Source: Escherichia coli (GTDB lineage: Bacteria; Pseudomonadota; Gammaproteobacteria; Enterobacterales; Enterobacteriaceae). Taken from it: a DNA stretch of 64,000 bases. Made by a program: the position numbers and the translations under genes. The stretch lies in NCBI RefSeq assembly GCF_009931435.1, contig NZ_CP043414.1, one strand, 5' to 3'. Positions 7,161 to 60,691 of the stretch are shown one piece after another. Each line of letters begins with the position of its first letter. Position 1 is the first letter of the stretch. The notes under the pieces were generated by a model. The model saw only the letters and a list, made by a program, of their open reading frames with translations, was not told where the DNA came from and searched no databases.

Positions 7161-7565
7161 ATTTACCCTGTTTGTTTCATTATGTTGTACACCTCTTCAG
7201 GAGTATTCATAAAACAAGATAAATGTAAAGAACTGTATTGTTTTGTATAATGCAATGGTGACTAATCGCCAATTAATATAAGCACCATCATTTCTCCCTA
7301 TTTTTATGTTAGAAGTGACAACGACTTGCAGGGTGATGCAGAGCTGACAATCACAGGTTTCCTTATCGGTTTTTGCATCGCACAACTAAAGCAATAAACT
7401 AGCTCCCGTCATCGGCGAATATGAATTAATTAGCCGGGCTCATAGCTGCATTCGCGTTTTAAGAATAATCCTCCTGCTCTCACCGACTATGCTTAACGTT
7501 TAAAAAAGCATCAACACTCTCGCAACGCACTCTTATTTTCCCCTTTAGAATACCGGAGGCCTGGT

Positions 7566-41901: not shown

Positions 41902-42029
41902 GTGGGGGTTGTGTTTAGGGCCGGGGAGAGTTGGGGTATGACTACGAAAGCCCGCTCTCCTGCGACCACTTTTATCATAGGAGTGTGGAAGTGCTTTTCC
42001 ATCAATCGCGATGACGTCTCAGGGAAAGA

Positions 42030-43103
42030 TTACGAAAGCCCGCTCCCCGCAAGGACTGACGCCAGATACTTTCTGTCCATGGCTGCTTTTCGCATCTTAC
42101 GTCTTAACCCTGCCTTGAATACCTTATCATTCGTCAAAATATTAATTGCGATGTGCCGTATCCCTGAAAATAATTCTGCTGCATTTCCTCTTCTTATTTT
42201 GCAGTCGTCTTCATTCATTACCACGTCCAGACGCCAGTGCAGCTTATTCTCCACGTGCCAGTGGTTTCGGATTGCTGTGGCGAACTTCTCTGCGGTTAAA
42301 TCAGCAGAACTGATATAATATCTGACCGTCATTTCTGGCTCTTTCTTTTGTTCTGCTATTATTGACCGAAAGGAGACTGCCACGCATAATTTCTTCAGAC
42401 CTTTCCATTCAAACGTGAAATCAATAAGTTCATCAGGGACATCGCAAACAATGTGAAGACGGATTTCTTCTCTGCCGTGACTCTTTTCACTAATTGCGTA
42501 ACTGTCATGCTCTGGATTATTTAATTCTTTCAGCGGAAATTTTTCCTCGAAGCCTTTATTTAGCCGCCCCTGGTTTCCTTTTACAGCGAATAAATAATCA
42601 CCTCCCTGTTTTTGTATCTTCTCTGCAATATCTTTCTGGCAACCCATCGCATCAGTTGTGATGATTTTTCCTTTAATATCCAGCATGTTAAGAAGTTCTG
42701 GGATAGCTGTAATCTCATTGGATTTCTCATCCGTCTTGATCTGTCCGATGACCAGACTGTGCATTGTTGAGAACGCACTAATGACATGAATCGCTCCCCT
42801 GCGGCGACTCTTGTCATAAGAGTGCCGGAGCGTTTTTCCATCAATTGCAATGACGCCTTTATCATCTGAAGAATGGCAGTCACGCATCCAGTTAATAAAG
42901 CACTCGTGAAATTTTGCAGGACTGATACAGGATACAACTCTGGCAATGGTATCGTGAACAGGAATACCATTTTCAAAATCACCATATTGCTTCAAAAAAT
43001 CGAGATGTGTTTCCCCAAAATCCTCTATATCTTCCCAACCTTCTGCACCCGAAATAACGGCGCAAATAGTCAACAGTAGAATATCCGATAATTTATGTTC
43101 CAC
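42030..43103 (-). mobile_element. ISAs1-family (H-repeat-associated) transposase, intact ORF
   Basis: 357-aa ORF recognised as H-repeat/ISAs1 transposase ([39 protein letters not shown]...); lies next to the Rhs genes. Element ends (inverted repeats) not determined. Confidence 0.8.
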
Positions 43104-43310
43104 TTTCTAGGCTTGTCTGTAATCGGGGATAATAGAAATATGTTCCATCAATTTTTTAAGTTCCATTTTGTTCTCCTTAATTATGTAAGGAGTATTTGAT
43201 CATGTATAAGCAATAAAAAACAGCTTCAGGTAATGAGGAATATCTCAATTTTTAAACATAAAATGCGAATTGTTTAGTACAAAAAAGCAGCGTTACGTGA
43301 TCTTTCCCTG

Positions 43311-43414
43311 CCAGCCCCTCCGGGTTGACCTGCTCCGTCACCCGCAGAACCCTGCACAATATCCAGTCCCTTGCAGGTCATGTCACCCTGCCGCGCCGCC
43401 GGTTTTCCGCTCAT
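43311..43414 (-). pseudogene. Orphan Rhs 5' fragment (Rhs upstream region + first 22 codons fused to a short internal Rhs piece)
   Basis: Minus strand 43414 down to 43345 near-identical to the Rhs2 start ([13 protein letters not shown][C][11 protein letters not shown]) and preceded by the same upstream sequence (CATGGTTTATTCCT); 43344-43311 matches an internal Rhs segment (…[11 protein letters not shown]…) read out of frame; stop soon after. Confidence 0.55.
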
Positions 43415-43546
43415 GGTTTATTCCTTTTCTTTTACCTTACATGGCCATACAAATAGTTACCTATACTGTCTTTGAATATTGCCCTATCATTTAAAGCCCA
43501 CCTAATTTTTGCGACAGCAAAGGGATTTCTTTTTTAATCCAATCTA

Positions 43547-43939
43547 TCATTTCATTTTTTTAAAACATACGTTAATGCCATTCACACTTCCACATTCACC
43601 AAAAGCATCAAAATAAATTTCACATTTATTGTTGCCTTTCGAAATGATGCTAACCCCCCATCTTATATTGTTATATTTTTCTTTTCTGAAATACTTCATT
43701 TGCAATAAATCAATTATCTTACCCGCATAGAGATCGCTAAGTTCATTCACCACCACTTTATATCTGTATATTTCATTAAGACCTTCCTTGCTAAGCGGAA
43801 CTAACGTGGTAACATACGATGGAAGATTAACTACCTCTATCGTTTTCACGCTATCTATTCCACACAATTCATTCACTCGCCCCATCCCCAATACCGAACC
43901 AGAAAATAGAGACAATAAAACCATCAAATATTTCATCAT
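43547..43939 (-). CDS. Putative secreted immunity protein for the Rhs2 C-terminal toxin
   Basis: Track ORF starts at GTG 43951, overlapping the Rhs2 stop; ATG at 43939 has a GAGG SD. Sec signal peptide (MMKYLMVLLSLFSGSVLG), about 130 aa, AT-rich, immediately 3' of the Rhs2 toxin domain. No recognised family. Confidence 0.55.
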   Translation of the reverse strand: MMKYLMVLLSLFSGSVLGMGRVNELCGIDSVKTIEVVNLPSYVTTLVPLSKEGLNEIYRYKVVVNELSDLYAGKIIDLLQMKYFRKEKYNNIRWGVSIISKGNNKCEIYFDAFGECGSVNGINVCFKKMK

Positions 43940-43950
43940 AAAAAACCTCA

Positions 43951-46900
43951 CTATTCTGGCGTACCCGTTATTGTCATCGTCTGCAACGGTCCATCCACCC
44001 GATAAAAAGGCAGTCCACTATGAGCTCCTCTGACACACTCATCTAAAGTTTTCGCCGCACGCGATTCAATTATTGTAATAACCCTTGCCTCTTCTTTATT
44101 ATCATATTTCTTATCCGTCCGACTTAAAAGAGCCATGAAATTTTCTTTATCAAGAAGGTAATACTGTGCATGTGCAAACTCATGCCCCAAACCTAATGCA
44201 GGCGATTGTGATTTCGAGTTTAATTCAGTTGAACAAAATAAAGACGCTCTACTATTCCAATATATCGTCATATTATTCGAATTAAATCTACCATTGGTTC
44301 CTTCAATATACTCTATATTTATAGTTTCTTCAGAGCTTGATAAAAAATCTATAGCATCTTTCATTCGTGAATCTTTTTCTAAATACTTAACAGCCTGATT
44401 AAAATCACTTGGATCACCATTAACCTCGAATTTTAAACCCAAAGAATCTATAAACCGAACAGGGTTTAATGGATATTTATACAGATTCCATTCACCTCTT
44501 AGCCCGATTGGATCCTGCGTGATATACCTCCCCTGCAACGGGTCATAGTACCGGTGACGGTTGTAGTACAGCCCCGACTCCTCATCATACTGCTGCCCTG
44601 GCAGACGGTACGGCTGTTGCAGGTGCTCCGGGTTTTCCTCTCCCAGCAGGTTTCCCCACTCGTCATACTCCCCGCGCCACGCCGTTTCCCCTTCCGGGCT
44701 GATAAGCGCCTGCGGCAGCCCACGGTGGTCACAGTGGTAAAGATGAAGTTTCCTCTCCGGGATGTATTCTTCCTCCATCTGGTTGTTCATCTGTTCCGCC
44801 GTCAGCCCGCACTGCGCAAGCCATGCTTCACTCTCCGCACTCACCGCACCCGCGCGCAGTTCCCGCTCCAGCCTCCCCAGCATCACCGACAGCTCCGCCG
44901 GGAGCGTCACACCCGTGTCCTCCTGCAACACCTCCGCCAGGCTACGGTGCCGCGCCTTCGCCTGTTCGCCATTCTCTGTTTCGATTCTCAGGAGCGGCGT
45001 GAAGCTTCCCGGCTGATAAATCGTCTGGATACGTGTGGTGCCGGTCTGTACCGTCGTCAGCCTGTCACCGTCCCACCCGTACCATGTCTCCTCCGGTTTA
45101 CGCGACAGCGACATCCATCCCGTCAGGTCACGCTCCCGCCGCCACACCCGTTTTCCCGTCCTGCGGCCCAGCGGGTCGTAAAGGTAGCGGCTCTCCACCT
45201 GCGGCTCGCCGTGCTGTATCCGCGTGTAGAACACCAGACGGTGCTGGCTGTCGTAATGGTAGTGGTGGGTGCGCTCGTCGTGCATCCGTATCACCCCTTC
45301 CGGGATACGGTCCGTCTTCTCCGCCAGCCTGCCGTATTCATCGTGGCGGTAGACATAGTGCGCATCTTCCGCGATGCGGTTATCCGGCCACGCCGTGAAG
45401 GTGCTGTCCGGGTGCAGTTCCGGGTCCGGCAGCCGGTTTCCTGCCGGGTCCGTCGCATACGGGATATCAATGTCCAGGTTCGCTGCCGTGGTGTGGACGC
45501 CCGTCAGCCTTCCCGTGTCGCTGTAACGGTACTCCCGGCTCTCCTGCGGGCCGCTGATACGCACCAGTTGCCCGTTATCATTCCACGTATACTCACGGTC
45601 AAGCTGCGGAAGGTTCAGGTGCCTGCTCCGGAGCTGGCCTGTGAGGGTGTATGTGCTGGTCAGTTCATATGCGGCATTACTGCCTGCCATGCTGCCGAAG
45701 CTGCGCACCGTCTCACGGTGCAGCCTGTCCCGCGTGTACTCGACCAGCGGCGTTCCGCCCAGCTTCATCCCCGCAAGATAACCGCTGCCATACGTCAGCC
45801 ACTCCACCGGCGGCAGACCGTCCGGCTCCTGACGGGTCGCCAGCCCCTGTTCGCTGTACGCGTGCCCCGTCTCATGCTCCCACAGCATCTCCCCCGTCTC
45901 CGGGTTCTCCACCGTCTGCCGTTCGCCCGTCAGGCGGCCCTTATCGTCATAGCCGTAGTGGACCGCCACACGGTGGCCTTCACTGGTATGGCTGAGGGTG
46001 GTTAACCACCCGTGCTCATCATACTGCCACTGCTCTGCCGCTTCGCCGTTCACCGTCCGGTGCGTGATGCGGTCCGACGCATCGTAGTGCCAGAGGGTGA
46101 TAAGTCCCTCGTCTTCACTGCGGACAAGCTGCCCTGTGGCGCTGTACCGGTAACGCTGTGTCCGTCCGTCAAAGCCGCGCTGCTCCGTCAGGCGGTCCAC
46201 CGGGTCATACAGGAACGTGGACTGGCTGCCGTTCTCATTAGTCAGCGTGGTGATGCGCCCGGCGGCGTCATACCCCATGCTGCGCGTCAGACCGCCCTGC
46301 GTGGTGCTGATAGCTTTACCCCACGCATCATACTGTGTCTCACTGCGGCTGCCGTTCGGGGCAATGATAGCGGTGAGGTCGCCTGCGGCGCTGTACTCAT
46401 AACGGGTTTCACGCCCCTGCACATCCTTCTGACTGACCAGTTGACCACGCGGGTTATAACTGCTGTAAGTGCTGATGCCTTCTTCCCGGTGAACCGCCGT
46501 CCTCTGCCCGTACCGGTCGTACTCATACCGTGTCGTGTACCCCGAGCAGTCCGTGAAGGCCAGCAGTTGACCGTAGCGGCTCCATGCCATCTGTTTTGTA
46601 CTGCCCGTCGCATCCTGTATCCCTGTCGGCAGCTCACTCGCCGGGTCATCATAGCTGTACCGCGTCGTCTCACCGCTGCGCGAGGTCTCCGCCGCCAGCC
46701 TTCCCTTCTCATCATACTCCCGGCTGCTGCGAAGCCCGTCCGGGTACGTCACTGACGTCACCTGCCGCTGGCTGTTGTAGCCATACCGCACCGTCCTGCC
46801 GTCCGGCCCCGTCACCGCCGTCACCGCGCCCGACGCCATATGCAGGCTGTACTCCGTCCGCCGCCCCGCCGCATCCGTCTGCGCCTTCAGCCTCCCCGCC

Positions 46901-48207
46901 GCATCATACTCGCTGCGGGTGATGCTCCCGTCCGCATGCTCCTTCTTCACCACCCGCTTCAGGCCACCCTCGCCTTCCGTGTACAGCACCTCCCGCCTGT
47001 TCAGGCTGTCCGTGATGGTCACACGGTCCTGCCCGTACTCAAAGCGGTAGGCCAGCCCCTCCGGGTTGACCTGCTCCGTCACCCGACCGGTATCATCATA
47101 CCGGTAGCGGCTCTCCGGCCTCCCCGCATAATGGTGCGCCACCATCCGCCCGGCGTGCTCCGCATCATAAGTAAACCCGCGCACCTGCGTCCCGCTGCGG
47201 TCATACACCGCCAGCAACTCACCGCTGGCCGTGTACGTGTAGCGCGCCAGCGGCGCAGTCGGCTGTTCATCCGGGTATGCCGGGTCGTGTGTCAGCCACA
47301 CCGCCTCCAGCCGGATACCGTTATCGGCACCGTATTCTGTACCGGCGGGCAGCGTGTCGGGGAAAACCTGAGAAGAGGAAACAGAACGGGGACCGGCAGG
47401 GGAAGATAAAGACGTGGCGCGCTGTTTACGGCAGGCTTCCGCCCGCTGCGCCTGCGTGCTCAGCAACAGGTGAAAACGACGGCCCGCACCGTCCGTCCCC
47501 CCCGTCACCGCGCCCGCCACGTCACCCTCCGCTGCCCGGTGAAAGGCCAGCGTCCGACCAAAGCCATCCACCACGCCCGTCAGCACCCGGTATGCGGGCG
47601 GTTCCGGCGGCAGCACCTCGTCCGCCCCCGGCACCCGCTCCGGCCAGCTGAGTATCCACCACGGCCCCTGAAGGCTGTTTGTCGCCAGGTACACATGCGG
47701 ACTCAGGCGAACATCTTCCGGCAGCACCTGCCAGAGCGCGCTTAGCGGCTGCGAACTGTGCTGCTCCGCCCCCCCGCCCCGCGCCAGCCAGAACGACTCG
47801 CTGCGGCTGTAGCTTATCTCGCCGGGAAACAGCGGCTCAAAGTGAATGCTCCTGCCGCCGTTGTCGTTGAGTATCAGTTCCCGCTCATGAACCTGTAAGC
47901 GGATATCGAAGGGCGCTTTCCAGCCGGGGCCGAACACGCCCACCGGCGCGGGCGTCCTGGTCCGGTAACTGCTGTAAGCGCGGGAAAGAATAAACGGCAG
48001 CGGGCCGGGCAGTGCCAGGTCCGTCTCGCCCGGCAGCACCTTCGCACCCAGCACCGGGTTCACCGGGTTAGCATAGGTAATCCCTCCCGGACACACCGAG
48101 CAGGCCACTCCCGTCGGCGCACCTATCAGCACCCCTGCTGAACCCTGCACAATATCCAGTCCCTTGCGGGTCATGTCGCCCTGCCGCGCCGCCGGTTTTC
48201 CGCTCAT
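43951..48207 (-). CDS. PAAR-Rhs polymorphic toxin (Rhs2), HExxH-containing C-terminal domain
   Basis: 1418 aa; N-terminus carries a literal PAAR motif ([13 protein letters not shown]...GSAGVLIG); long YD-repeat core; core ends [27 protein letters not shown]; last about 160 aa unique, with HEFAH. Confidence 0.9.
44497..47450. repeat. Rhs core direct repeat, copy A (paired with 50623-53580)
   Basis: Track shows identical 483-aa antisense ORFs at 44554-46005 and 50680-52131, so at least 1.45 kb is nucleotide-identical between the two Rhs genes; flanking core highly similar with scattered substitutions. Outer boundaries approximate. Confidence 0.8.
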
Positions 48208-48330
48208 GGTTTATTCCTCTTCCTCTGAATAAACTTATTTTTGATGCACTAATGATTTTCAAAAGAGATTTATATTTAACGACAATTCAGCACTTTTAAT
48301 GTAAAAGATCCCCGGCTGAATGATATTCAC

Positions 48331-49323
48331 TCATTGTTTGTTATCAGAAAGTGTTTTATACAGCGGCACATATCCCACGTCTTCCACAAGACTTTGCCCC
48401 TGAGGGCTTAAAAACCAGTCCACTAGTTTTTGTGTTTCCGGTGTCGGCTTTTCGCGGGTGACCATGTAGGCATCCACCACATACGGATAAGTACCGTTGC
48501 GGATATTCTCCACCGTTGGTGCAATACCATTTATTGCCAGCAGCTTAAGATTTGGGCTTATATCCTTATTCATCTGTGTGACATAATAGCGGAAGGTGTA
48601 ACCAATTGAAGGCTGCGTATTCCGGTAGGCAATTACTTTGGTTAACACTCCATTCATAAGGCTTACTTCTGTAGATGTTCTGGCGGGTAGCATCGGTGTC
48701 TCTTTCATCACCTTTGCCAGCATCACCGTCTGGCTACCGGAATCTTCCGGACGCTGCCAGACCTGAATGCGCTCATCACTGCCACCAACCTGACTCCAGC
48801 GGGTGATTTTACCGCTGAAGATATCCCGAACCTGCTGTTCAGTAAAAGAACTGACCGGATTACTGGCGTTAACGATAAAAACAAAGGCTTCGTGGGCGAA
48901 GGGGGTATAAACCAGTTTCACCCCGGCATCGGCAGCCCGTTGTTTTTGTCCTGCGGAAGGCTGGGCAACAAAAATAACATCGGCCTGGCGCTTTATGAGA
49001 TCATTATAGGCTTCTGGTGTACGAGTCGGATACATATAATTCAAACCCGGATCTTGATGGTTATCCCCGGGGATCAAATATCGGTAAGCTGAAGCATACA
49101 GTGGATATAACGCGGTTGCACCACATACCCGGGGCCATTTATTCGAGTTATCAGTGTAGCGTAAAGTGGGTTCTCCTCGTATATTGGTTTTCTCCCAACT
49201 CACTGTTTCTTTTACGCTGTTATCGCCCCCGCCGTCTACACATCCTGACATTAATACCGTCATATAAAATAATACTGGTAACAGGCCCACCCTACGCATA
49301 CAATGATTTAATAAATACGCCAT
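48331..49323 (-). CDS. PstS-like (phosphate-binding-protein fold) putative lipoprotein, orphan
   Basis: Track ORF 48331-49365; start placed at ATG 49323 (GAGG SD 5-6 nt upstream) giving MAYLLNHCMRRVGLLPVLFYMTVLMSGC with lipobox-like LMSGC; PstS-like motifs (VIFVAQPSAGQ..., FTEQQVRDIFSGKITRWSQVGGSDERIQVW); no ABC transporter genes nearby. Confidence 0.55.
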   Translation of the reverse strand: MAYLLNHCMRRVGLLPVLFYMTVLMSGCVDGGGDNSVKETVSWEKTNIRGEPTLRYTDNSNKWPRVCGATALYPLYASAYRYLIPGDNHQDPGLNYMYPTRTPEAYNDLIKRQADVIFVAQPSAGQKQRAADAGVKLVYTPFAHEAFVFIVNASNPVSSFTEQQVRDIFSGKITRWSQVGGSDERIQVWQRPEDSGSQTVMLAKVMKETPMLPARTSTEVSLMNGVLTKVIAYRNTQPSIGYTFRYYVTQMNKDISPNLKLLAINGIAPTVENIRNGTYPYVVDAYMVTREKPTPETQKLVDWFLSPQGQSLVEDVGYVPLYKTLSDNKQ

Positions 49324-49627
49324 ATACCTCACTCTAAAATATTGATTATATAAATACATATGCATAATTATATTTACATCAAATTCTGAATGAACAATTT
49401 AAATTTAGAGAAAGTGAAATTTAATTTTTCGATACTTCCGCATACATATTCCCCTCGCTAAAAAATCATCATTCCACAATCAATCATTAATTACAACTCA
49501 ATATACATCATTTAACTTTCATTAAACTCGCAATTTATTATTACATTGTAGCCATTATGAACTGTCATCACGCACACACTCTACATACACATTAGAAACA
49601 ATATAACCCCATGAGCCATCCTCCGTT

Positions 49628-50074
49628 TCAATACTTAGTGCAGCGTGTCTTAAGGAAATTAGAAGCCACAACATCAATCTTTTCTTTTAAGACTAAATCA
49701 TCCACATAATCACAAGACAAATAGAAGTCATTACCATCGGCCATTATAAATATCCTCATAGGTAAAGATTTATCATTATCAACATGAGCATTCGTAATAA
49801 TCCAATAATAAGGAAATCTAACATTTTTTGTAGGAATACCCAATAAATCATAAGCTTTATTATTATATTCTATCGCTCCCTTAACAAACGTTGGTTTGAC
49901 CTCCTTACCAATAATGCGATGCGACGTATATTCTTCCTTCTCAGCAAACGATTGCATTAATGCCCATATAGGTTTATTTGCCAGCTCACCGTGATGAAAA
50001 ATCCGATAAAAATACACTCCTAAAAAAAATATTAAGCCTAAGCAAACCAATACCATGAGGCAGTTCTTACTCAT
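49628..50074 (-). CDS. Putative membrane-anchored immunity protein for the Rhs1 C-terminal toxin
   Basis: 148 aa; ATGA start/stop overlap with Rhs1; single N-terminal TM helix ([19 protein letters not shown]); AT-rich. No recognised family. Confidence 0.55.
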
Positions 50075-53000
50075 TGATTAAAATCCGTAAAATTAGAAGG
50101 AACAGGGCCATTCTCAGGTGAAAACAATGGAGATGTATTTGATACTCGTGATGCTATCATTTCTACAGTAGCAGGAAGATACATTGGCATTCCATTATCA
50201 CCACCTAGCGGATCAGTTGAAGTTAAAATTTCATTTATTGAATCTACTGAGACTCCCGCATGCAACATTGCCTCAATAACCATTGTTGCACAATTGTGCG
50301 TAAAATAGTTATAGTCACTTCTATCTACTTTATATTTTTCATCAATGTACTTAATCATTGCTTTCTCTTGTTCTGGCGTGGTTTTAATTGTATATATCCT
50401 CGTGCTTCTACGTTGTGCTTGTTCAGTTAAATAAGCTATGACACTCCCTCCACGTGGGGTAGCGGTTCCATAGCTATATACCCCTTTTCCAGTAAATGCC
50501 ATCGCAGAATGCCCTAATGGATTACCACTCGTGGGTCCCCCAGCAAAAATAAGGGTATCCAAACCAAGTGGATCTATATTTATAGTTGGATTCCACGGAT
50601 ATTTATAAAGATTCCATCCCCCCGCAAGCCCGATTGGATCCTGCGTGATATACCTCCCCTGCAACGGGTCATAGTACCGGTGACGGTTGTAGTACAGCCC
50701 CGACTCCTCATCATACTGCTGCCCTGGCAGACGGTACGGCTGTTGCAGGTGCTCCGGGTTTTCCTCTCCCAGCAGGTTTCCCCACTCGTCATACTCCCCG
50801 CGCCACGCCGTTTCCCCTTCCGGGCTGATAAGCGCCTGCGGCAGCCCACGGTGGTCACAGTGGTAAAGATGAAGTTTCCTCTCCGGGATGTATTCTTCCT
50901 CCATCTGGTTGTTCATCTGTTCCGCCGTCAGCCCGCACTGCGCAAGCCATGCTTCACTCTCCGCACTCACCGCACCCGCGCGCAGTTCCCGCTCCAGCCT
51001 CCCCAGCATCACCGACAGCTCCGCCGGGAGCGTCACACCCGTGTCCTCCTGCAACACCTCCGCCAGGCTACGGTGCCGCGCCTTCGCCTGTTCGCCATTC
51101 TCTGTTTCGATTCTCAGGAGCGGCGTGAAGCTTCCCGGCTGATAAATCGTCTGGATACGTGTGGTGCCGGTCTGTACCGTCGTCAGCCTGTCACCGTCCC
51201 ACCCGTACCATGTCTCCTCCGGTTTACGCGACAGCGACATCCATCCCGTCAGGTCACGCTCCCGCCGCCACACCCGTTTTCCCGTCCTGCGGCCCAGCGG
51301 GTCGTAAAGGTAGCGGCTCTCCACCTGCGGCTCGCCGTGCTGTATCCGCGTGTAGAACACCAGACGGTGCTGGCTGTCGTAATGGTAGTGGTGGGTGCGC
51401 TCGTCGTGCATCCGTATCACCCCTTCCGGGATACGGTCCGTCTTCTCCGCCAGCCTGCCGTATTCATCGTGGCGGTAGACATAGTGCGCATCTTCCGCGA
51501 TGCGGTTATCCGGCCACGCCGTGAAGGTGCTGTCCGGGTGCAGTTCCGGGTCCGGCAGCCGGTTTCCTGCCGGGTCCGTCGCATACGGGATATCAATGTC
51601 CAGGTTCGCTGCCGTGGTGTGGACGCCCGTCAGCCTTCCCGTGTCGCTGTAACGGTACTCCCGGCTCTCCTGCGGGCCGCTGATACGCACCAGTTGCCCG
51701 TTATCATTCCACGTATACTCACGGTCAAGCTGCGGAAGGTTCAGGTGCCTGCTCCGGAGCTGGCCTGTGAGGGTGTATGTGCTGGTCAGTTCATATGCGG
51801 CATTACTGCCTGCCATGCTGCCGAAGCTGCGCACCGTCTCACGGTGCAGCCTGTCCCGCGTGTACTCGACCAGCGGCGTTCCGCCCAGCTTCATCCCCGC
51901 AAGATAACCGCTGCCATACGTCAGCCACTCCACCGGCGGCAGACCGTCCGGCTCCTGACGGGTCGCCAGCCCCTGTTCGCTGTACGCGTGCCCCGTCTCA
52001 TGCTCCCACAGCATCTCCCCCGTCTCCGGGTTCTCCACCGTCTGCCGTTCGCCCGTCAGGCGGCCCTTATCGTCATAGCCGTAGTGGACCGCCACACGGT
52101 GGCCTTCACTGGTATGGCTGAGGGTGGTTAACCACCCGTGCTCATCATACTGCCACTGCTCTGCCGCTTCGCCGTTCACCGTCCGGTGCGTGATGCGGTC
52201 CGACGTATCGTAGTGCCAGAGGGTGATAAGCCCCTCGTCTTCACTGCGGACAAGCTGCCCTGCGGCGCTGTACCGGTAACGCTGTGTCCTGCCATCAAAG
52301 CCGCGCTGCTCCGTCAGGCGGTCCAGCACATCATAGGTAAACTCACTCCGGCTGCCGTTCTCGTTGGTCAGCACGGTGATGCGCCCGGCGGCGTCATACC
52401 CCATGCTGCGCGTCAGCCCGCCCTGCGTGGTGCTGACGGCCTTTCCCCACGCATCATACTGTGTCTCACTGCGGCTGCCGTCCGGGGCAATGATAGCGGT
52501 GAGGTCGCCTGCGGCGCTGTACTCATAACGGGTTTCACGCCCCTGCACATCCTTCTGACTGACCAGTTGACCACGCGGGTTATAACTGCTGTAAGTGCTG
52601 ATGCCTTCTTCCCGGTGAACCGCCGTCCTCTGCCCGTACCGGTCGTACTCATACCGTGTCGTGTACCCCGAGCAGTCCGTGAAGGCCAGCAGTTGACCGT
52701 AGCGGCTCCATGCCATCTGTTTTGTACTGCCCGTCGCATCCTGTATCCCTGTCGGCAGCTCACTCGCCGGGTCATCATAGCTGTACCGCGTCGTCTCACC
52801 GCTGCGTGAGGTCTCCGCCGCCAGCCTTCCCTTCTCGTCATACTCCCGGCTGCTGCGCAGCCCGTCCGGGTACGTCACTGACGTCACCTGCCGCTGGCTG
52901 TTGTAGCCATACCGCACCGTCCTGCCGTCCGGCCCCGTCACCGCCGTCACCGCGCCCGACGCCATATGTATCCGGTACTCCGTCCGCCGTCCCGCCGCAT

Positions 53001-54342
53001 CCGTCTGCGCCTTCAGCCTCCCCGCCTCATCATACCCGCTGCGGGTGATGCTCCCGTCCGCATGCTCCTTCTTCACCACACGCTTCAGGCCACCCTCGCC
53101 CTCCGTGTACAGCACCTCCCGCCTGTTCAGGCTGTCCGTGATGGTCACACGGTCCTGCCCGTACTCAAAGCGGTAGTCCAGTCCCTCCGGGTTGACCTGC
53201 TCCGTCACCCGCCCGGTATCATCATACCGGTAGCGGCTCTCCGGCCTCCCCGCATAATGGTGCGCCACCATCCGCCCGGCGTGCTCCGCATCATAAGTAA
53301 ACCCGCGCACCTGCGTCCCGCTGCGGTCATACACCGCCAGCAACTCACCGCTGGCCGTGTACGTGTAGCGCGCCAGCGGCGCAGTCGGCTGTTCATCCGG
53401 GTATGCCGGGTCGTGTGTCAGCCACACCGCCTCCAGACGGATACCGTTATCGGCACCGTATTCTGTACCGGCGGGCAGCGTGTCGGGGAAAACCTGAGAA
53501 GAGGAAACAGAACGGGGACCGGCAGGGGAAGATAAAGACGTGGCGCGCTGTTTACGGAAGGCTTCCGCCCGCTGCGCCTGCGTGCTCAGCAACAGGTGAA
53601 AACGACGGCCCGCACCGTCCGTCACCCCCGTCACCGCGCCCGCCACGTCACCCTCTGCCACCCGGTGGAAAGTCATCGTCCGACCAAAGCCATCCACCAC
53701 GCCCGTCAGTACCCGGTATGCGGGTGGCTCCGGCGGCAGCACCTCGTCCACTTCCGGCACCCGCTCCGGCCAGCCGAGCACCAGCCACTGCCCGGTTGTG
53801 CTGACAGCCATCATATAGGTGTGTGGACTCAGGCGGACCGCTTCCGGCAGCGCCCGCCAGAACCGCGCAAGCGGGTGTCCTTTATGCTGTTTCAGCACCC
53901 CGCCCCGCGCCAGCCAGAACGACTCGCTGCGGCTGTAGCTTATCTCGCCGGGAAACAGGGGTTCAAAGTGGATGCTCCGGCCACCGCTGTCGTTAAGTAT
54001 CAGTTCACGCTCACAAATCTGTAAGCGGATGTCGGAGGGGGCTTTCCAGCCGGGGCCGAATATCCCCACCGGGGCTGGCGTCTTCGTCCGGTAACTGCTG
54101 TAGGCGCGGAAAAGGATGAACGGCAACGGGCCGGATAGTGCCAGGTCGGTTTCAGCAGGCAGTACCTTCGCTCCCAGCAGCGGGTTTACCGGATTGCCAT
54201 ATTTCGGCGTGGCTTCCCCTGTGGGACACACCGAGCAGGCAACCCCCGTCGGCGCACCTATCAGCACCCCTGCTGAACCCTGCACAATATCCAGTCCCTT
54301 GCGGGTCATGTCACCCTGCCGCGCCGCCGGTTTTCCGCCCAT
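50071..54342 (-). CDS. PAAR-Rhs polymorphic toxin (Rhs1), His/Cys-containing C-terminal domain
   Basis: 1423 aa; PAAR motif at N-terminus ([13 protein letters not shown]...); YD-repeat core; core ends [27 protein letters not shown]; last about 162 aa unique (…[11 protein letters not shown]…[11 protein letters not shown]…); GAAGGA SD; 75 nt downstream of vgrG. Confidence 0.9.
50623..53580. repeat. Rhs core direct repeat, copy B (paired with 44497-47450)
   Basis: See copy A; same orientation, about 6.1 kb apart. Confidence 0.8.
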
Positions 54343-54417
54343 GAATCAATTCCTTCTGCTTTTAATATGGTTCATCTGGCCACTGCACCAGTTCCGTTTT
54401 AATTTTTTGCACCTGAC

Positions 54418-56559
54418 TCAAAATTGCCGCATATCCGGCATTCCGGGGGGTAAATCTTTCGGCACAGGCGCATCCGGCACAGGTTGTGTGGCACCACAGT
54501 TCCAGTTAATCACCGGCGCATCACCGTTCACATCCGACTCCCCTTCCAGATGAATGTGCGTACCATTAAGAAATATGCTTCCGTCCTTCGTCAGCACCAG
54601 CCTTGCCTTACCACAGCAGAGTTCAAGATGCTCACCGGCAGAATAAACTGCTGTTTGTCCGGTGTTTTCCTTCATCGTCTTGCCCACCGAGAAGGTGACG
54701 TTATTCCCTACATTGACGCTGTAGCCCATTCCCACCATCAGTGATTTATGCAGCCCTACCTGTGAGGACTGCAACAACGCCACCGAGGTATTCATAATGC
54801 CGCCTACCGTCGTCTGGTAAGCCACGCCCACCGTCAGCGCACGAATGATCCCCACCTTTTCAACCTGGTTTGATCCCACTTTGATAATCTGGTTACTGCC
54901 CACCGTTTCCACCTGGTTGACACCAACCGTCTGTATCTGATTAACGCCAATGTTCTGGATCTGGTTATTGGTAACGGTGATCGCCTGGTTGTTACCTATT
55001 TTTTCGGCATGGTTGTTTATCACATCAGTGGTGCGGTTATTCAGCACCTCGGTGTTCATGTTCTTCTGCGCGTGGATGTAGACCTGTTCTTTCCCTGTCG
55101 CATCGTCAAACTTCAGTTCATTAAACCCGCTGCCCTTATAGGTTTTCGAACGAATGGTCATCTGCGTCTTTGTTCCCGGCAGGCTGCCGGGGGTGCGGTT
55201 TTCCTGGTGGTAGGTACGCCCCATAATAATCGGCTGGTCCGGATCGCCGTTGAGGAAGTCCACAATGACCTCCTGACCCACACGCGGTATCGCCAGGTTA
55301 CCAAACCCGGTGCCTGCCCACGCCTGTGCCACACGGATCCAGCATGAACTGTCCTGGTTTGACGGGTTATAACGGTCCCAGTTAAATTTCACCCGCACGC
55401 GGCCATGTTCATCACAGAAGATTTCTTCTCCTGCCGGTCCCGTCACGACGGCGCTCTGCGGGCCATCCACCAGCGGTTTCAGCAACGGCTGTGGCCGCCA
55501 TGTTCTGTCTGCCGGTATTACCGCAAAGTGGTTATTCAGCGTGGTACCTGAACCCCTGCGTCCCGGCACCGCCTGCGGCTGCTCGCCGTGCAGTTCACTT
55601 GCCACCACCTGCCATTCCCGGTTCAGGTTCGCCTGCGGATGCCCCGTCAGCGCAATTCGCCGTCCCGGCCATATCTCCGGAGAACGGCTTGTTCCGCGCG
55701 CCACTTCTGCGTTGTTTCGCCAGCCATCCATCTGCCAGCGGGCAAAGTTCTGCCCGTGGGCACCCTTGAAACGTCCGGGGTAGTCATACACTTCATACTG
55801 TGTGCGCTGGTAATCCTGGTACTGGCCTTCCTGATCAAAACGCCCTGCCCAGCCGGGTCGTTTAAAGGTGTAGTCCTTGGTCACCACGGAAGAAGGGCGG
55901 ATTTGTGCGCTGTAGCGGAACTGGCTGATGCATAGGGTGCTCACCTCGGTACGGGTGTTCGGATTCCAGGGGATCTCAAAGGACTCCGGCAGATAACGCA
56001 CGGTGTCGCACAGGACCAGGCTCTGGTCGGTACTTTTTTGCGCGTGCTCCTCATAAAAGAAGATGCCTTCCTCCGCCGCCATCCGGCACAGGAAATCGTA
56101 ATCGGTTTCGCCGTACTGGACACAAAACTCACGGGAAGGATGCGGCTCGCTGAACAGCGGACTCCACTCGGTCACCCCGTTTTCTTTCAGGATCGTCGCG
56201 AGTATGCTTTCGATGTCCTCATTCTGGAAGATACGGAAGTTCTGGCGCAGCCCTGTGCGCCACAGCGGTGGGCATACCTTCATGCTGTACAGCATCTGGT
56301 TTTTGTCGTTCTCCCCCAGTTCAAACCAGGTCACCACACCTTTCACCCGGCGCTGTACGTCATCGCCCTGCCATATCGTCAGGTAGGCCATTTTGTCCAG
56401 CACCTGCGCAAATTCAAGGGAGAGAAACTGCTGGCTGACCAGAGAGAGATCGAGGGAAAAGAGCGAAGAGAGTGACTGGTTCAGATGAAAGGAGACCACC
56501 GCAAACGCGTCCGGTGGCAGGCCGTCCACTTCCAGCGTGAAACGTAATCCGGTTGACAT
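54418..56559 (-). CDS. vgrG: VgrG (TssI) spike protein
   Basis: 713 aa; gp27/gp5-like region and C-terminal beta-helix repeats (VGVNQVETVGSNQIIKVGSNQVEKVG); no large C-terminal effector extension. Confidence 0.9.
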   Translation of the reverse strand: MSTGLRFTLEVDGLPPDAFAVVSFHLNQSLSSLFSLDLSLVSQQFLSLEFAQVLDKMAYLTIWQGDDVQRRVKGVVTWFELGENDKNQMLYSMKVCPPLWRTGLRQNFRIFQNEDIESILATILKENGVTEWSPLFSEPHPSREFCVQYGETDYDFLCRMAAEEGIFFYEEHAQKSTDQSLVLCDTVRYLPESFEIPWNPNTRTEVSTLCISQFRYSAQIRPSSVVTKDYTFKRPGWAGRFDQEGQYQDYQRTQYEVYDYPGRFKGAHGQNFARWQMDGWRNNAEVARGTSRSPEIWPGRRIALTGHPQANLNREWQVVASELHGEQPQAVPGRRGSGTTLNNHFAVIPADRTWRPQPLLKPLVDGPQSAVVTGPAGEEIFCDEHGRVRVKFNWDRYNPSNQDSSCWIRVAQAWAGTGFGNLAIPRVGQEVIVDFLNGDPDQPIIMGRTYHQENRTPGSLPGTKTQMTIRSKTYKGSGFNELKFDDATGKEQVYIHAQKNMNTEVLNNRTTDVINNHAEKIGNNQAITVTNNQIQNIGVNQIQTVGVNQVETVGSNQIIKVGSNQVEKVGIIRALTVGVAYQTTVGGIMNTSVALLQSSQVGLHKSLMVGMGYSVNVGNNVTFSVGKTMKENTGQTAVYSAGEHLELCCGKARLVLTKDGSIFLNGTHIHLEGESDVNGDAPVINWNCGATQPVPDAPVPKDLPPGMPDMRQF

Positions 56560-56768
56560 AGCAACCTCCGGGTTTAAGGAAAAACAGACAGTTCGCTGTT
56601 AAAGCGGCTGTAACAGTACAGTGTTACGCTTGCGTTCAGGCACGCTACCGCCGAAGTTTCCGGCATCCGCCATCTCCCGTGAACGTAACCCCTTACTGAC
56701 AACCTTTCTTTTTACGGCGTAATACAAAAACAGCATCCGGCCTGATAGCCGGATGCTGTTGGCTTAAC

Positions 56769-57287
56769 TTATGCTTCCAGCGGTGCGCGCCAGTCGTCGG
56801 CACCGGAGGTGCCAGATTTGACGTGTTCCCACTCAATCTTGCGGTAGGCCAGTGAAACTTCGAGCAACTGGGTGAACTCGCGTTTCGCCGGGTCCTGGCA
56901 ATGCGGCATATGCAGTTTCATATCGACAATCGTCGAATCAGTCAGGCGGGTGGTGAAATAATGCTCCTGTTTGCCTTCCACAGATGTACGCCACCAGTGC
57001 AGTTCAGTGGTTGGCAGCATTTCACCGGAGGCCAGTGCGTTGTACATCAGCGGAACCGCTTTGTTCAGCGCCACGGTAAAAATGAACGGCTTGTGAGCAC
57101 GCTGACCCGCAGGCTGACCGGACTGAGGATCGGTCGGGACAGTAACGTTATGCAGGAATTCCTGCACCAGCATCTCGTCTTCGTGCCCCTGCACATAGAT
57201 GTTGCCGACAGAATCAGCGGTAAATGCACCTGCAGTAATATTTCCCTGGGTCTGACCAGTGATGGAGATATAACACGGTGTTGGCAT
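56769..57287 (-). CDS. hcp: Hcp (TssD) tube protein
   Basis: 172 aa, Hcp1-family sequence (MPTPCYISITGQTQGNITAGAFTADSVGNIYVQGHEDEMLVQEF...); directly upstream of vgrG. Confidence 0.85.
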   Translation of the reverse strand: MPTPCYISITGQTQGNITAGAFTADSVGNIYVQGHEDEMLVQEFLHNVTVPTDPQSGQPAGQRAHKPFIFTVALNKAVPLMYNALASGEMLPTTELHWWRTSVEGKQEHYFTTRLTDSTIVDMKLHMPHCQDPAKREFTQLLEVSLAYRKIEWEHVKSGTSGADDWRAPLEA

Positions 57288-57583
57288 TTGTAAACTCCTT
57301 GTTAACGTGGTTAATTACTACTTACAATGACCTGCCGTTAATCCCAGACAGGCAGATGCAGCTCACTTCACGGAACCGCATCATTTTTCAGTATTTTTTA
57401 CATACAAACCGAGCTAGAATTTACGGTTGTCGTAAAAACTATTTTTAAAATCATTAAATCTCTTATTCAGCAATAACTTAATAATATATATCTGGATAAC
57501 TATACCCAACTGTTCAAAGTCCGTATTGCCTCCATAAAATGGCCAAAGCTGAATCATGAATAAATATTGTATTTATCCTTTCT

Positions 57584-57605
57584 GAATTATCATTTTGATA
57601 ATTTT
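57584..57605. promoter_or_regulatory. Candidate Fur-box-like site in the divergent T6SS promoter region
   Basis: GAATTATCATTTTGATAATTTT contains inverted ATTATC/GATAAT hexamers; in AT-rich 700-bp region between hcp and tssB. Weak call. Confidence 0.25.
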
Positions 57606-57982
57606 TGAGATATTCCTTAAAAATACCCACTTACTCAATCACAAAACAAATATATAAACAAGCAATCATTAGATTAGCTTATGTTTAATGAAATTATTAT
57701 ATACTTCAATAAGATACATAAAAACTCTATATTTAAATTATTGCCATAATACACCTGACGCGAATTGCACAGGTTCACACAATCTATTTAACGCTTGCAG
57801 AATACCCCTCTTTACGATCGATAAAAAGTCCTTTTCTTATTTATTTTGAAGCGTAAAATGCGGGGTGATGAAGGAGTGGTGATTTTATTTTCACCGCCAT
57901 CAAGGCGGCATTTCCGATATTTTTTGCGGTACAAATATGCTGTGTTCATGGCCTGTACGAGATAACATGACGGATCACTTTT

Positions 57983-58483
57983 ATGAGCAAAAAATTTGAA
58001 GGCAGCGTCGCGCCTCGCGAGCGTATTAATATATCGTATGTCCCAAAAACAGATGGCCAGACGGCTGAAGTGGAACTTCCGCTTAACATGCTCGTTGTCG
58101 GCGATACCGGAAATACGCAGGAAACATCCTCACTGGATGAACGTCAGGCAGTTTCCGTTAACAAGCACAATTTCGGTGCAGTGATGGCTGAAGCAGCCAT
58201 TGGCCTCAATTTTACCGTCCCCGCCACGCTGAAGGGAAGCACAACGGACGATGAACTGAATGTGGCGCTGAATATCAAGTCACTGGATGATTTTTCACCA
58301 GATAGCGTGGCCCGGCAGGTTCCGGAAGTGAATAAATTGCTGGAATTACGTGAAGCACTGACTGCACTGAAGGGGCCGATGGGTAACCTTCCGGCATTCC
58401 GTACCCAGCTCCAGGCATTGCTGGAAAATGAAGAGTCCCGCGAGCAGTTGCTCAAAGAAATCGGCCAGGTGAGCAATAAATAA
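57983..58483 (+). CDS. tssB: TssB (VipA) sheath small subunit
   Basis: 166 aa recognised as TssB (MSKKFEGSVAPRERINISYVPKTDGQTAEVELPLNMLVVGD...). Confidence 0.85.
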   Translation: MSKKFEGSVAPRERINISYVPKTDGQTAEVELPLNMLVVGDTGNTQETSSLDERQAVSVNKHNFGAVMAEAAIGLNFTVPATLKGSTTDDELNVALNIKSLDDFSPDSVARQVPEVNKLLELREALTALKGPMGNLPAFRTQLQALLENEESREQLLKEIGQVSNK

Positions 58484-58517
58484 CCACCACTATTTCATTA
58501 AACAGGGTTATCCAGGC

Positions 58518-58742
58518 ATGACGGCACACAAAAATATCTCCGGGACATACCACCTCTCTGTTGCAGACATTCTGCAGGTGGTTTACCAGGTATGTTTCAG
58601 CCCGTCCGTTGAAATCAACCAGGATGGTGTGGCTGCGCTGATTACAACACTGGATCGCCGTATCAGTGATCTATTGGATGAGATTATCCATTTTTGTGAG
58701 TTTCAGCAGAGCGCGTCGCACTGGCAGCGCGTACTTCACTGA
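58518..58742 (+). CDS. Hypothetical 74-aa protein resembling a TssC N-terminal segment
   Basis: ORF between tssB and tssC; C-terminal half (LITTLDRRISDLLDEIIHFCEFQQSASHWQRV) aligns with TssC residues IADIDERISRQMDVIIHAPAFQQVESFWRSL; similarity is protein-level only. Confidence 0.3.
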   Translation: MTAHKNISGTYHLSVADILQVVYQVCFSPSVEINQDGVAALITTLDRRISDLLDEIIHFCEFQQSASHWQRVLH

Positions 58743-58792
58743 CGGCGAAAAGCCGGTTTCAGAAACACAGCTAAAACAGAAGGATTTTCAGT

Positions 58793-60268
58793 ATGTCTTT
58801 ACAGGAAGAGGAACTCGTTTCCAGTCATGCCGGGCAGCCTGAGCAGGCATCGTCGCTGCTTGATCAAATCATGGCACAGACCCGTATTCAGCCCGGTTCG
58901 GAAGGTTATGACGTTGCCCGCCAGGGTGTGACAGCCTTTATTGCCAGCATCCTGCAATCCACTGCATCTGCCGAACCGGTCAATAAACTGGCCGTGGACA
59001 GCATGATTGCAGATATTGATGAACGCATCAGCCGCCAGATGGATGTCATCATCCATGCGCCTGCCTTTCAGCAGGTCGAGTCGTTCTGGCGCTCACTGAA
59101 AACCATGGTGGATCGCGTTGATTTCCGTGAAAACATCAAGGTCAACGTGCTTCATGTCACCAAGCAGGAACTTCTGGAAGACTTTGAGTTTGCGCCAGAA
59201 ATTATTCAGTCCGGATTTTATAAGCACGTTTATTCGTCCGGTTTCGGACAGTTTGGCGGTGAACCCATCGCTGCCGTGCTGGGCGCTTATGAGTTCAAAA
59301 ATACCGCGCCTGACATGAAACTGCTGCAATACGTCAGTGCCGTGGGCGCAATGGCGCACGCACCGTTCCTGTCCTCCGTTTCCCCGGAGTTTATGGGGCT
59401 GAACTCGTGGACCGAACTGCCTAATATCAAAGATCTTTATGCCATCTTTGAAGGTCCGGCCTACACCAAATGGCGCGCCCTGCGTGACTCGGAAGATTCG
59501 CGCTATTTAGGGCTTACGGCACCCCGCTTCCTGCTTCGCCAGCCCTATTCACCAACAGATAACCCTGTTAAGAACTTTAACTATTACGAAGATGTCAGCC
59601 AGAACCACGAAGATTATCTGTGGGGTAATACGGCCTGGATGCTGGCATGCAATATCGCAGACAGTTTTGCCAAATACCGCTGGTGTCCAAACATTATCGG
59701 TCCGCAAAGCGGCGGCGCAGTGAAAGATCTGCCGGTGCATCTGTTCGAAACGATGGGGCAGATTCAGGCCAAAATCCCAACCGAGGTGCTGGTCACCGAT
59801 CGCCGCGAATTTGAACTGGCTGAAGAGGGTTTTATCACCCTTACCATGCGTAAAGACTCTGATAATGCAGCCTTTTTCTCTGCAAACTCGGTACAAAAAC
59901 CGAAGCACTTTCCGGGAAAAGATGCAGAAACCAACTATAAGCTGGGTACGCAGCTTCCTTATCTCTTCATCATCAATCGGTTAGCGCACTACATCAAGGT
60001 GTTGCAGCGTGAACAACTGGGGTCATGGAAAGAAAGGAGCGACTTAGAAAGAGAGCTTAATACCTGGATCCGTCAGTATGTTGCCGACCAGGAAAACCCG
60101 CCTGCAGACGTGCGCAGCCGCAAACCTCTGCGCGCTGCCAAAGTTGAGGTTATGGATGTAGAAGGCGAACCCGGCTGGTACCAGGTTGCGCTAAGCGTGA
60201 GACCTCATTTTAAATTTATGGGGGCAAATTTTGAGCTTTCCCTGGTTGGCCGGTTAGACAGGGAGTAA
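58793..60268 (+). CDS. tssC: TssC (VipB) sheath large subunit
   Basis: 491 aa recognised as TssC. Confidence 0.9.
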   Translation: MSLQEEELVSSHAGQPEQASSLLDQIMAQTRIQPGSEGYDVARQGVTAFIASILQSTASAEPVNKLAVDSMIADIDERISRQMDVIIHAPAFQQVESFWRSLKTMVDRVDFRENIKVNVLHVTKQELLEDFEFAPEIIQSGFYKHVYSSGFGQFGGEPIAAVLGAYEFKNTAPDMKLLQYVSAVGAMAHAPFLSSVSPEFMGLNSWTELPNIKDLYAIFEGPAYTKWRALRDSEDSRYLGLTAPRFLLRQPYSPTDNPVKNFNYYEDVSQNHEDYLWGNTAWMLACNIADSFAKYRWCPNIIGPQSGGAVKDLPVHLFETMGQIQAKIPTEVLVTDRREFELAEEGFITLTMRKDSDNAAFFSANSVQKPKHFPGKDAETNYKLGTQLPYLFIINRLAHYIKVLQREQLGSWKERSDLERELNTWIRQYVADQENPPADVRSRKPLRAAKVEVMDVEGEPGWYQVALSVRPHFKFMGANFELSLVGRLDRE

Positions 60269-60274
60269 CACACC

Positions 60275-60688
60275 ATGATACCGGATCGGGAAAGAACCAC
60301 AGGTTCTCTTTTTGAGCGTATGGAAGCCTCTTCGGCCAGAAACCGGCAGGGAGGCAGTATTCATTCGCTCAGGCAATCCATTCGCCAGAACCTACGAAAC
60401 ATTCTTAATACCCGGTCCGGTAGTTGCCGGGGTGCGCCTGAGCTGGGCATTGATGAACCGGAAGGGGCTGAAAACTTCCGCGAATCCATGAGTCGGGCCA
60501 TCGAGCAATGTATAGAACGCTATGAACCCCGGATCTCACACGCTGAAGTGCAGGCAGTGGTTTCATCCGCCTCCAGCCCGCTGGATATGACGTTTCATAT
60601 TACAGCCTGGGTGACATTTAACGAAACGCATGAGGTGCTTGAATTTGATATGGCACCGAATGGCAGCCAGCATTACCGGGTGGACTGA
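60275..60688 (+). CDS. tssE: TssE (gp25-like baseplate protein)
   Basis: 137 aa, GSLFERM-type N-terminus; GGGAG SD; position after tssC. Confidence 0.75.
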   Translation: MIPDRERTTGSLFERMEASSARNRQGGSIHSLRQSIRQNLRNILNTRSGSCRGAPELGIDEPEGAENFRESMSRAIEQCIERYEPRISHAEVQAVVSSASSPLDMTFHITAWVTFNETHEVLEFDMAPNGSQHYRVD

Positions 60689-60691
60689 CAG

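Follow-up and report, generated by a model that had tools for sequence, protein, structure and literature searches.

How could a single VgrG spike protein serve two complete Rhs toxins that are encoded one behind the other with no adaptor gene beside them? The question is raised by a locus of Escherichia coli (assembly GCF_009931435.1, contig NZ_CP043414.1), of which a stretch of 64,000 nucleotides, referred to below as the window, was analysed. A first-pass annotation had described hcp and vgrG, followed after 75 bp by a full-length rhs gene (encoding Rhs1) and its immunity gene, a gene for a PstS-like lipoprotein, and a second full-length rhs gene (encoding Rhs2) with an immunity gene of its own; all of these are present as described. 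The locus varies a familiar E. coli layout in a way that is seldom seen but not extraordinary: it is a T6SS2-Rhs with additional modules. It can be read as the effector end of a type VI secretion system (T6SS) island of the T6SS-2 type located by fadE-ivy-yafV, with two canonical Rhs proteins encoded behind hcp-vgrG and a tandem of composite origin, and this joint reading is considered reasonably probable, though well short of certain.

Two canonical Rhs proteins in one array

The gene order of the window recurs in the six contigs shown, out of 18 that carry the same 148-aa protein (the product of imm1, see below); these six are 99.07–99.97% identical to the window. Since these near-identical contigs include a complete chromosome of 5.2 Mb (CP057959.1), the tandem is real and borne by a lineage, and not an artefact of assembly. 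The flanking core genes proBA, phoE, and crl are about 98.5% identical to those of E. coli, and the island is bordered by an ISEc1 pseudogene followed by yafV, ivy, and fadE. The intergenic gaps across the array from hcp to the immunity gene of Rhs2 are 75, 262, 123, and 209 bp. VgrG itself ends in a gp5-type beta-helix and carries no effector or adaptor extension; the precomputed Pfam matches of a VgrG of equal length from one of the syntenic loci (L065) are only Phage_GPD, Phage_base_V, and Gp5_trimer_C.

Rhs1 and Rhs2 both have intact reading frames and are canonical RHS element core proteins of E. coli. Each matches the NCBIfam model NF041261 ('RHS element core protein') over its full length and scores well above the cut-off of 2000 bits (Table 1), and TIGR01643 and TIGR03696 matches mark the YD/RHS repeats and the Rhs-associated core. 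The Pfam matches within residues 1–1200 of Rhs1 are DUF6531, the plug, at residues 49–126, followed by RHS repeats, and an aspartyl autoprotease motif, DPIGL-x17-DPLGL, is located at residues 1235–1261. The rhs cores are GC-rich (0.62–0.66), while the toxin tips and immunity genes have a GC content of about 0.35. A Shine-Dalgarno-like AGGAA precedes both rhs genes.

Origin of the tandem

The homology between rhs1 and rhs2 starts one nucleotide before the ATG and ends at the junction between the core and the toxin tip. Over the first 600 nt the genes are 67–89% identical, from nt 2251 to 3600 (50743–52092 versus 44617–45966), i.e., over at least 1350 nt, they are 100% identical, and at the core/tip junction the identity falls from 100% to about 40%. 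Such a mosaic indicates two Rhs lineages with gene-converted cores rather than a fresh duplication.

The same order, hcp-vgrG-Rhs-PstS-like-Rhs, is found in Escherichia albertii, in which the PstS-like gene and the start of the second rhs gene are 95.7% identical to those of the window. The vgrG-proximal Rhs of the E. albertii locus (L001, 5759–9896) is split into overlapping frames of 1002 and 392 aa, reflecting either a frameshift pseudogene or a sequencing error. A Salmonella array contains a PstS-like gene, an rhs start stub, a tip similar to the toxin tip of Rhs2 (CT2), and a gene similar to its immunity gene (imm2), and thus represents a collapsed version of the window module. Another Salmonella locus, L059, was considered as a second tandem of intact Rhs genes and was rejected, its second copy being frameshifted and internally deleted.

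From these comparisons, the tandem would be an inherited composite, in which a module made of the PstS-like gene, Rhs2, CT2, and imm2 is common to E. albertii and the window and has decayed in Salmonella. The tip of Rhs1 would have been replaced by a cassette of the present toxin tip (CT1) and its immunity gene (imm1), leaving the PstS-like gene behind as the orphan immunity gene of the displaced toxin, and gene conversion would keep the two rhs cores homogenised.

The N-terminal peptide is one third of a PAAR domain

The literal sequence PAAR occurs exactly once in each Rhs protein, at residue 5, as had been noted at first, and residues 1–40 of the two proteins are identical except for G2S. 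The further claim that the proteins begin with a PAAR domain was put to the profile search that the first-pass annotation had itself named as a possible refutation, and it did not hold. Pfam PAAR_motif (PF05488) gave no match to residues 1–1200 of Rhs1 even at an independent E-value of ≤10, and NCBIfam models found RHS_core alone, and no PAAR, in residues 1–69. When eight Rhs starts were compared with 92 orthodox PAAR proteins by hhalign, only residues 3–29 aligned, with a probability of 81%, to columns 69–94 out of 94; phmmer likewise gave weak alignments (E-values of 0.15–1.1) of residues 2–29 with the last third of two solved PAAR proteins, residues 71–98 out of 99 in 9rce (chain c) and 67–93 out of 93 in 4jiv (chain D). 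A three-repeat PAAR of about 90 residues cannot be accommodated, as DUF6531 already begins at residue 49. Judging by these alignments, the Rhs N-terminus is homologous to one of the three PAAR repeats, the last, and is no full PAAR domain; 'PAAR-like peptide of Tse5 type' is the accurate label for it. A cleavage junction of Tse5 type is predicted further along, N|PVNPLLGAK at residues 50/51 of Rhs1 and N|PVNPVLGAK at residues 47/48 of Rhs2, and residue 51 of Rhs1 aligns with the first residue of the shell chain of Pseudomonas aeruginosa Tse5, which starts PVNPMLGSK.

The missing adaptor

The prePAAR motif of Eag-chaperoned effectors is AARxxDxxxH, and Eag chaperones shield the transmembrane segments of these effectors. 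In both window proteins the motif is absent: Lys stands in place of His, and there is no His at all in residues 1–50. By hydropathy neither Rhs has an N-terminal transmembrane segment; within the first 300 residues the highest 19-residue Kyte-Doolittle mean is 1.28 for Rhs1 and 1.44 for Rhs2, both maxima lying in a conserved Gly-rich stretch at residues 19–43. Since both the transmembrane segment and the prePAAR motif are lacking, no Eag chaperone is expected for Rhs1 or Rhs2. None is encoded beside them either: no DUF1795/eag gene was found in the syntenic loci, in the reference T6SS cluster of E. coli NCTC9967, or in the gaps of the window, which at 75–262 bp are too small for one, so that the initial observation of no EagR-type open reading frame (ORF) between vgrG and either rhs gene stands. 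In the part of PMC6730261 that summarises Ma et al. 2017, T6SS2-Rhs are classed apart from the Rhs proteins dependent on vgrGO1/eagR (DUF1795). The placement given there for the class (after hcp-vgrG, no eagR) is that of Rhs1, with Rhs2 lying one module further downstream and having the same N-terminus. The missing eag gene is thus what would be expected as the norm for this class of Rhs, and no anomaly.

Two toxins for one spike: a proposed mechanism

In the proposed mechanism, Rhs1 and Rhs2 would probably bind, with no partner in between, to the tip of the upstream-encoded VgrG by means of their near-identical N-terminal peptides, any one spike could be armed with either toxin, and an Eag chaperone would be unneeded. 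The idea that either Rhs can be placed on the single VgrG had been part of the first-pass annotation, and it fared differently in its two parts. Sharing of one VgrG is plausible, the identity of residues 1–40 apart from G2S making it reasonable to suppose that the same VgrG is usable by both; capping by a PAAR cone is not borne out.

Several points weigh against this reading. Its delivery part was built on gene linkage to vgrG and on sequence, the vgrG and PAAR gene content of the genome was seen only within the window, and the T6SS cluster past position 64,000 was inspected only in the reference strain. We know of no case in which a single PAAR repeat caps a VgrG trimer. The only promoter match upstream of Rhs2, at 48347–48320, is weak (9 of 12 consensus positions). 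Finally, the autoprotease motif of Rhs2 is a variant, DPIGL-x17-DSLGL (residues 1232–1258, about 44434–44514); the Asp is kept, yet self-cleavage of the toxin tip might be affected.

The first alternative is that Rhs2 is a silent reserve: only Rhs1 would be made and fired, while Rhs2 would be a recombination substrate for tip switching and imm2 would be expressed against kin. This would resemble the Salmonella arrangement of main and orphan rhs genes, and the completely identical core tract speaks for ongoing exchange between the two genes. There is no convincing promoter upstream of Rhs2, and a lipoprotein gene that differs in GC content parts it from the vgrG operon. In Salmonella only decayed fragments of this module are left, and in enterohaemorrhagic E. 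coli (EHEC) the immunity gene is transcribed from start sites that lie within rhs, close to its 3' end (PMC13141884). The state of Rhs2 argues otherwise, however. Its 1418-aa frame is fully intact in the window, as it also is in L065 and L066, the two full-length loci shown. A good Shine-Dalgarno sequence (GAGGAA) precedes it, nothing is missing from the N-terminal docking peptide, and no terminator-like site was found on the minus strand between the PstS-like gene and Rhs2. A silent Rhs2 is unlikely, if still worth bearing in mind.

The second alternative concerns the peptide, which may have no part in docking on the spike tip; the Rhs proteins would then either ride on an orthodox PAAR protein whose gene lies elsewhere or bind to the side of VgrG, and the literal PAAR would be a relic. 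The peptide covers only about 26 of the 94 PAAR columns, Pfam does not recognise the region, and in Tse5 residues 30–47 are buried in the shell, leaving fewer than 30 residues free. Against this, the peptide is very highly conserved over the Rhs starts of Escherichia and Salmonella, decayed stubs included, and the syntenic reference cluster lacks an annotated PAAR gene. On balance we doubt the relic explanation. The T6SS cluster of NCTC9967 (L072), followed from tssB to ykfM, has no stand-alone PAAR gene annotated, and the single-repeat Rhs peptide may be the sole PAAR-like element of the T6SS-2-type system.

A bolder possibility is that three of these one-third-PAAR peptides together cap the VgrG trimer, so that Rhs1 and Rhs2 could be loaded side by side and fired in one shot instead of by turns. 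It is improbable, a long shot at best; if true, the three-peptide cap would be a new mode of spike-tip assembly for the whole class of canonical E. coli Rhs and Tse5. The locus shows that the 'PAAR' of canonical E. coli Rhs is a single repeat, which turns the geometry of docking into a question, and it offers a natural test case for possible competition over one VgrG between complete Rhs proteins that share a docking peptide.

Toxin tips and their immunity proteins

CT1 belongs to a widespread family of toxin tips with 379 cluster representatives. It gave a Pfam match to Lnb_N (4e-7) and weak ones to PPPDE and TseH, and its structure was predicted with confidence (pLDDT 95.6); CT1 is identified as a TseH/YiiX-like permuted papain-fold cysteine hydrolase. 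Vibrio cholerae TseH (6v98) and E. coli YiiX (2if6) are hydrolases of this kind, to which CT1 is only 12–14% identical; CT1 is no free effector but forms the end of an Rhs shell protein. Homologues of CT1 and imm1 (65% and 63% identical, respectively) stand in the same order in L077, a metagenomic locus unrelated to the window, and there too they overlap by 4 bp; because the pair recurs in this way imm1 is the candidate cognate immunity gene for CT1. Its product has an N-terminal transmembrane helix (highest hydropathy 2.53).

CT2 has a weak match to Peptidase_M91 (1.5e-3) and contains HExxH within GHEFAH, and on this basis it is a predicted HExxH metallopeptidase. Salmonella has an orphan toxin tip with 38% identity to CT2. 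In Salmonella L006 an imm2 homologue (22% identical, E-value 1e-8) lies directly after a CT2-like tip, and imm2 can be considered the candidate immunity gene for CT2; the N-terminus of its product is signal-like. Each pair is found again elsewhere, and the assignment of an own immunity gene to each Rhs, made in the first-pass annotation, is supported. The membrane and export signals carried by both immunity proteins suggest that CT1 and CT2 act in the envelope of the target cell. PADLOC gave no matches to CT1, CT2, imm1, imm2, or the PstS-like protein.

The PstS-like lipoprotein gene as a probable orphan immunity gene

The protein encoded between rhs1 and rhs2 has the type II periplasmic binding fold, as seen from its match to PstS proteins of solved structure (1e-16), and the anion-binding motif R-x3-SG(S/T) is kept, with R205, S209, G210, and S211 invariant in 18 homologues; its score of 128 bits against TIGR02136 is below the cut-off of 207. 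No permease or ATPase genes of the pstCAB type are located beside the PstS-like gene in any locus examined.

The closest comparison is again with E. albertii, whose PstS-like protein is 96% identical. There the first Rhs has a different, His/Cys tip ('LVNRDL...THTF...NCK'), and the PstS-like gene comes directly after it. The 'LVNRDL' tip is present in three other database clusters, and in both of the two that were examined, a Salmonella array and L076, a PstS-like gene follows 133–270 bp on; a second kind of His/Cys tip in Salmonella has one 54 bp after it. Given these neighbours, the PstS-like gene of the window is most likely the orphan immunity gene of a displaced 'LVNRDL' toxin. A role as immunity partner of the present Rhs1 tip was considered and rejected, since the CT1/imm1 pair recurs elsewhere without a PstS-like gene. 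Short PstS-family lipoproteins of about 320–340 aa were observed repeatedly in the usual slot of an immunity gene after His/Cys Rhs tips (Table 1). PstS-fold lipoproteins may constitute a new family of immunity proteins; no literature on immunity proteins of the PstS type was found in the library searched. Setting the window beside E. albertii and Salmonella has thus provided a candidate of this kind that is open to testing.

When the region between the Rhs genes was compared by megablast with the complete genomes of E. coli (5,426 in number), only 81 bp at the rhs start was matched. In a 'distant' search, the toxin tip and PstS-like gene of E. albertii gave matches within the PstS-like part only, in genes annotated as PstS family, and a profile scan of contigs with the PstS-like alignment retrieved almost only a glgP-adjacent paralogue and distant PstS genes, and no new Rhs contexts.

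Most E. coli have a PstS-like gene for a protein of 502 aa between glgP and glpD (L002–L005, 8001–9509), followed by three ORFs without Pfam matches, and some strains have three tandem PstS-like genes in this place (L063/L064, 7487–10981). These genes could be an array of orphan immunity genes; their position may be that of the K-12 pseudogene yzgL.

That the PstS-like lipoprotein is instead an accessory of Rhs2, a non-obvious adaptor replacing the missing vgrG neighbour, is very hard to credit, even though the window, E. albertii, and a Salmonella array (at two sites) all have an rhs start directly behind its gene. With its lipoprotein signal it is an exported protein, unable to act as chaperone for a T6SS substrate in the cytoplasm. 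In L059 and L060 the PstS-like gene directly follows a toxin tip and no rhs start was detected downstream of it, in L076 it likewise directly follows a toxin tip and none of the genes called after it is Rhs, and no Rhs gene was detected within the flanks examined of the close paralogues at glgP-glpD.

Other features of the window

The coordinates of all features are collected in Table 1. Between imm2 and the ISEc1 pseudogene lies the stub of a third rhs gene; L065 and L066 have the same stub, for which a gene of 46 aa is called there. The syntenic ISEc1 copy of NCTC9967 is annotated as 'ISAs1 family transposase, internal stop'. The stub and the dead ISEc1 together are evidence of an earlier deletion in the array. 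On the other side, in the divergent structural operon, the conserved 74-aa ORF between tssB and tssC (58518–58742, plus strand) is also called in NCTC9967, E. albertii, and L065. A search of 42000–58500 against Rfam gave no matches.

Table 1. Features of the window and PstS-like genes noted with His/Cys tips in other loci (positions are those of the window unless another locus is named)
Feature	Position	Strand	Remarks
hcp (TssD tube protein, 172 aa)	56769–57287	-	TIGR03344 1.7e-61; divergent from tssB at 57983
vgrG (713 aa)	54418–56559	-	TIGR03361 3e-189
Rhs1 (1423 aa)	50071–54342	-	75-bp gap after vgrG; NF041261 2549 bits, residues 1–1261
Rhs1 PAAR-like peptide, residues 1–29	54256–54342	-	hhalign and phmmer
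CT1, Rhs1 toxin tip, residues 1262–1423	50074–50559	-	predicted permuted papain-fold cysteine hydrolase
imm1 (148 aa)	49628–50074	-	start overlaps Rhs1 stop by 4 bp
PstS-family lipoprotein (about 322–344 aa, start codon ambiguous)	48331–49365	-	TIGR02136 3.7e-37; lipobox LMSGC
Rhs2 (1418 aa)	43951–48207	-	123-bp gap after PstS-like gene; NF041261 2603 bits
CT2, Rhs2 toxin tip, residues 1259–1418	43954–44433	-	predicted HExxH metallopeptidase; GHEFAH motif
imm2 (about 130–134 aa)	43547–43951	-	signal-peptide-like N-terminus
Stub of a third rhs gene (46-aa ORF)	43274–43414	-	start codon and first 66 nt fused to internal core piece
ISEc1 (ISAs1-family, 'H-repeat') transposase pseudogene	42030–43166	-	in-frame TAG
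tssB, 74-aa ORF, tssC, tssE, tssF, tssG (divergent structural operon)	57983–63588	+	ORFs; order as in the annotated NCTC9967 cluster
Terminator-like hairpin just past hcp stop	56729–56760	-	14 pairs (8 G-C), then T run
PstS-like gene, L001 (E. albertii)	9980–10999		
PstS-like genes, L006 (Salmonella)	7234–8241, 9986–10993		
PstS-like gene, L059 (Salmonella)	8512–9483		
PstS-like gene, L060	706–1677		
PstS-like gene, L073	6613–7620		
PstS-like gene, L076	1643–2629		

Comparison with known systems

The nearest known arrangement is the T6SS2-Rhs of E. coli EDL933 and NCTC9967. EHEC EDL933 has the same hcp3-vgrG3-rhs-immunity operon (PMC7216683), i.e., hcp3 z0266, vgrG3 z0267, the rhs gene 'paar' z0268, and the immunity gene z0269, in the order found in the window for hcp, vgrG, rhs, and immunity gene. 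In NCTC9967 the order is fadE-ivy-yafV-IS-orphan rhs tips-one rhs-vgrG-hcp on one side and tssB...tssM-VasL-hcp on the other, with neither an eag gene nor a stand-alone PAAR gene annotated. The window shares with both strains the island, the Rhs core and N-terminus, the lack of eagR, the hairpin between hcp and vgrG, and the end with orphan rhs and ISEc1; the likeness to EDL933 is one of organisation. A 14-pair hairpin in the 3' untranslated region of hcp3, a terminator and regulatory element between hcp3 and vgrG3, has been characterised in EHEC (PMC13141884), and the hairpin of the window, having 14 pairs and lying directly after hcp, fits this element. The window differs in having a second complete Rhs where other E. 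coli strains carry only orphan C-terminal fragments, and in the PstS-like gene between the Rhs genes, a junction absent from all of the complete E. coli genomes searched (5,426 out of 5,426).

Among proteins of solved structure the closest relative is Tse5 (PA2684) of P. aeruginosa (3.9e-42). Its 47-residue N-terminal fragment holds a PAAR-like domain that is needed for secretion, and Tse5 associates with the VgrG1c spike (PMC10684867); the domain has been called 'cryptic PAAR-like' (PMC7376260). Residues 30–47 of the fragment are buried in the shell (PMC10684867, PMC9637101, PMC7376260), and the cleavage junction is K47|PVNPMLGSK. Tse5, which is delivered by VgrG1c/VgrG4, resembles Rhs1 and Rhs2 in its N-terminal fragment of about 47–50 residues, the PVNP(M/L)LG(S/A)K junction, and the succession of plug, shell, and aspartyl autoprotease behind it. 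The comparison covered parts of the core, and what it found in common was the plug region and the YD-repeat core. An Eag-type chaperone is not mentioned in the same three papers. Tse5 differs in that it is without a literal Pro-Ala-Ala-Arg, has a pore-forming tip, and is encoded by a single gene.

The Eag-dependent prePAAR Rhs proteins, such as Serratia Rhs1 and Rhs2 with EagR or those of the vgrGO1-eagR-rhs loci of E. coli, have the shell, the tip with its immunity gene, and the link to VgrG in common with the window proteins. Unlike the latter, however, they have a full PAAR, a prePAAR motif, and chaperone-shielded transmembrane segments (PMC6730261).

Rhs loci are also known to collect extra toxin and immunity modules. 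The arrays of main and orphan rhs genes in the Enterobacteriaceae resemble the window in their GC-rich core and low-GC cassettes, in a homology that ends at the DPxGL junction, and in leftover immunity genes and rhs stubs. The downstream copy of the window differs from those of such arrays in that it is a complete gene, beginning with a start codon and a docking peptide of its own, and not a promoter-less toxin fragment. Set beside these systems the locus adds little, as a chaperone-free hcp-vgrG-rhs order is the standard T6SS-2 layout of E. coli; two leads deserve to be retained, namely how one third of a PAAR would dock and the possibility that lipoproteins of PstS fold form an immunity family.

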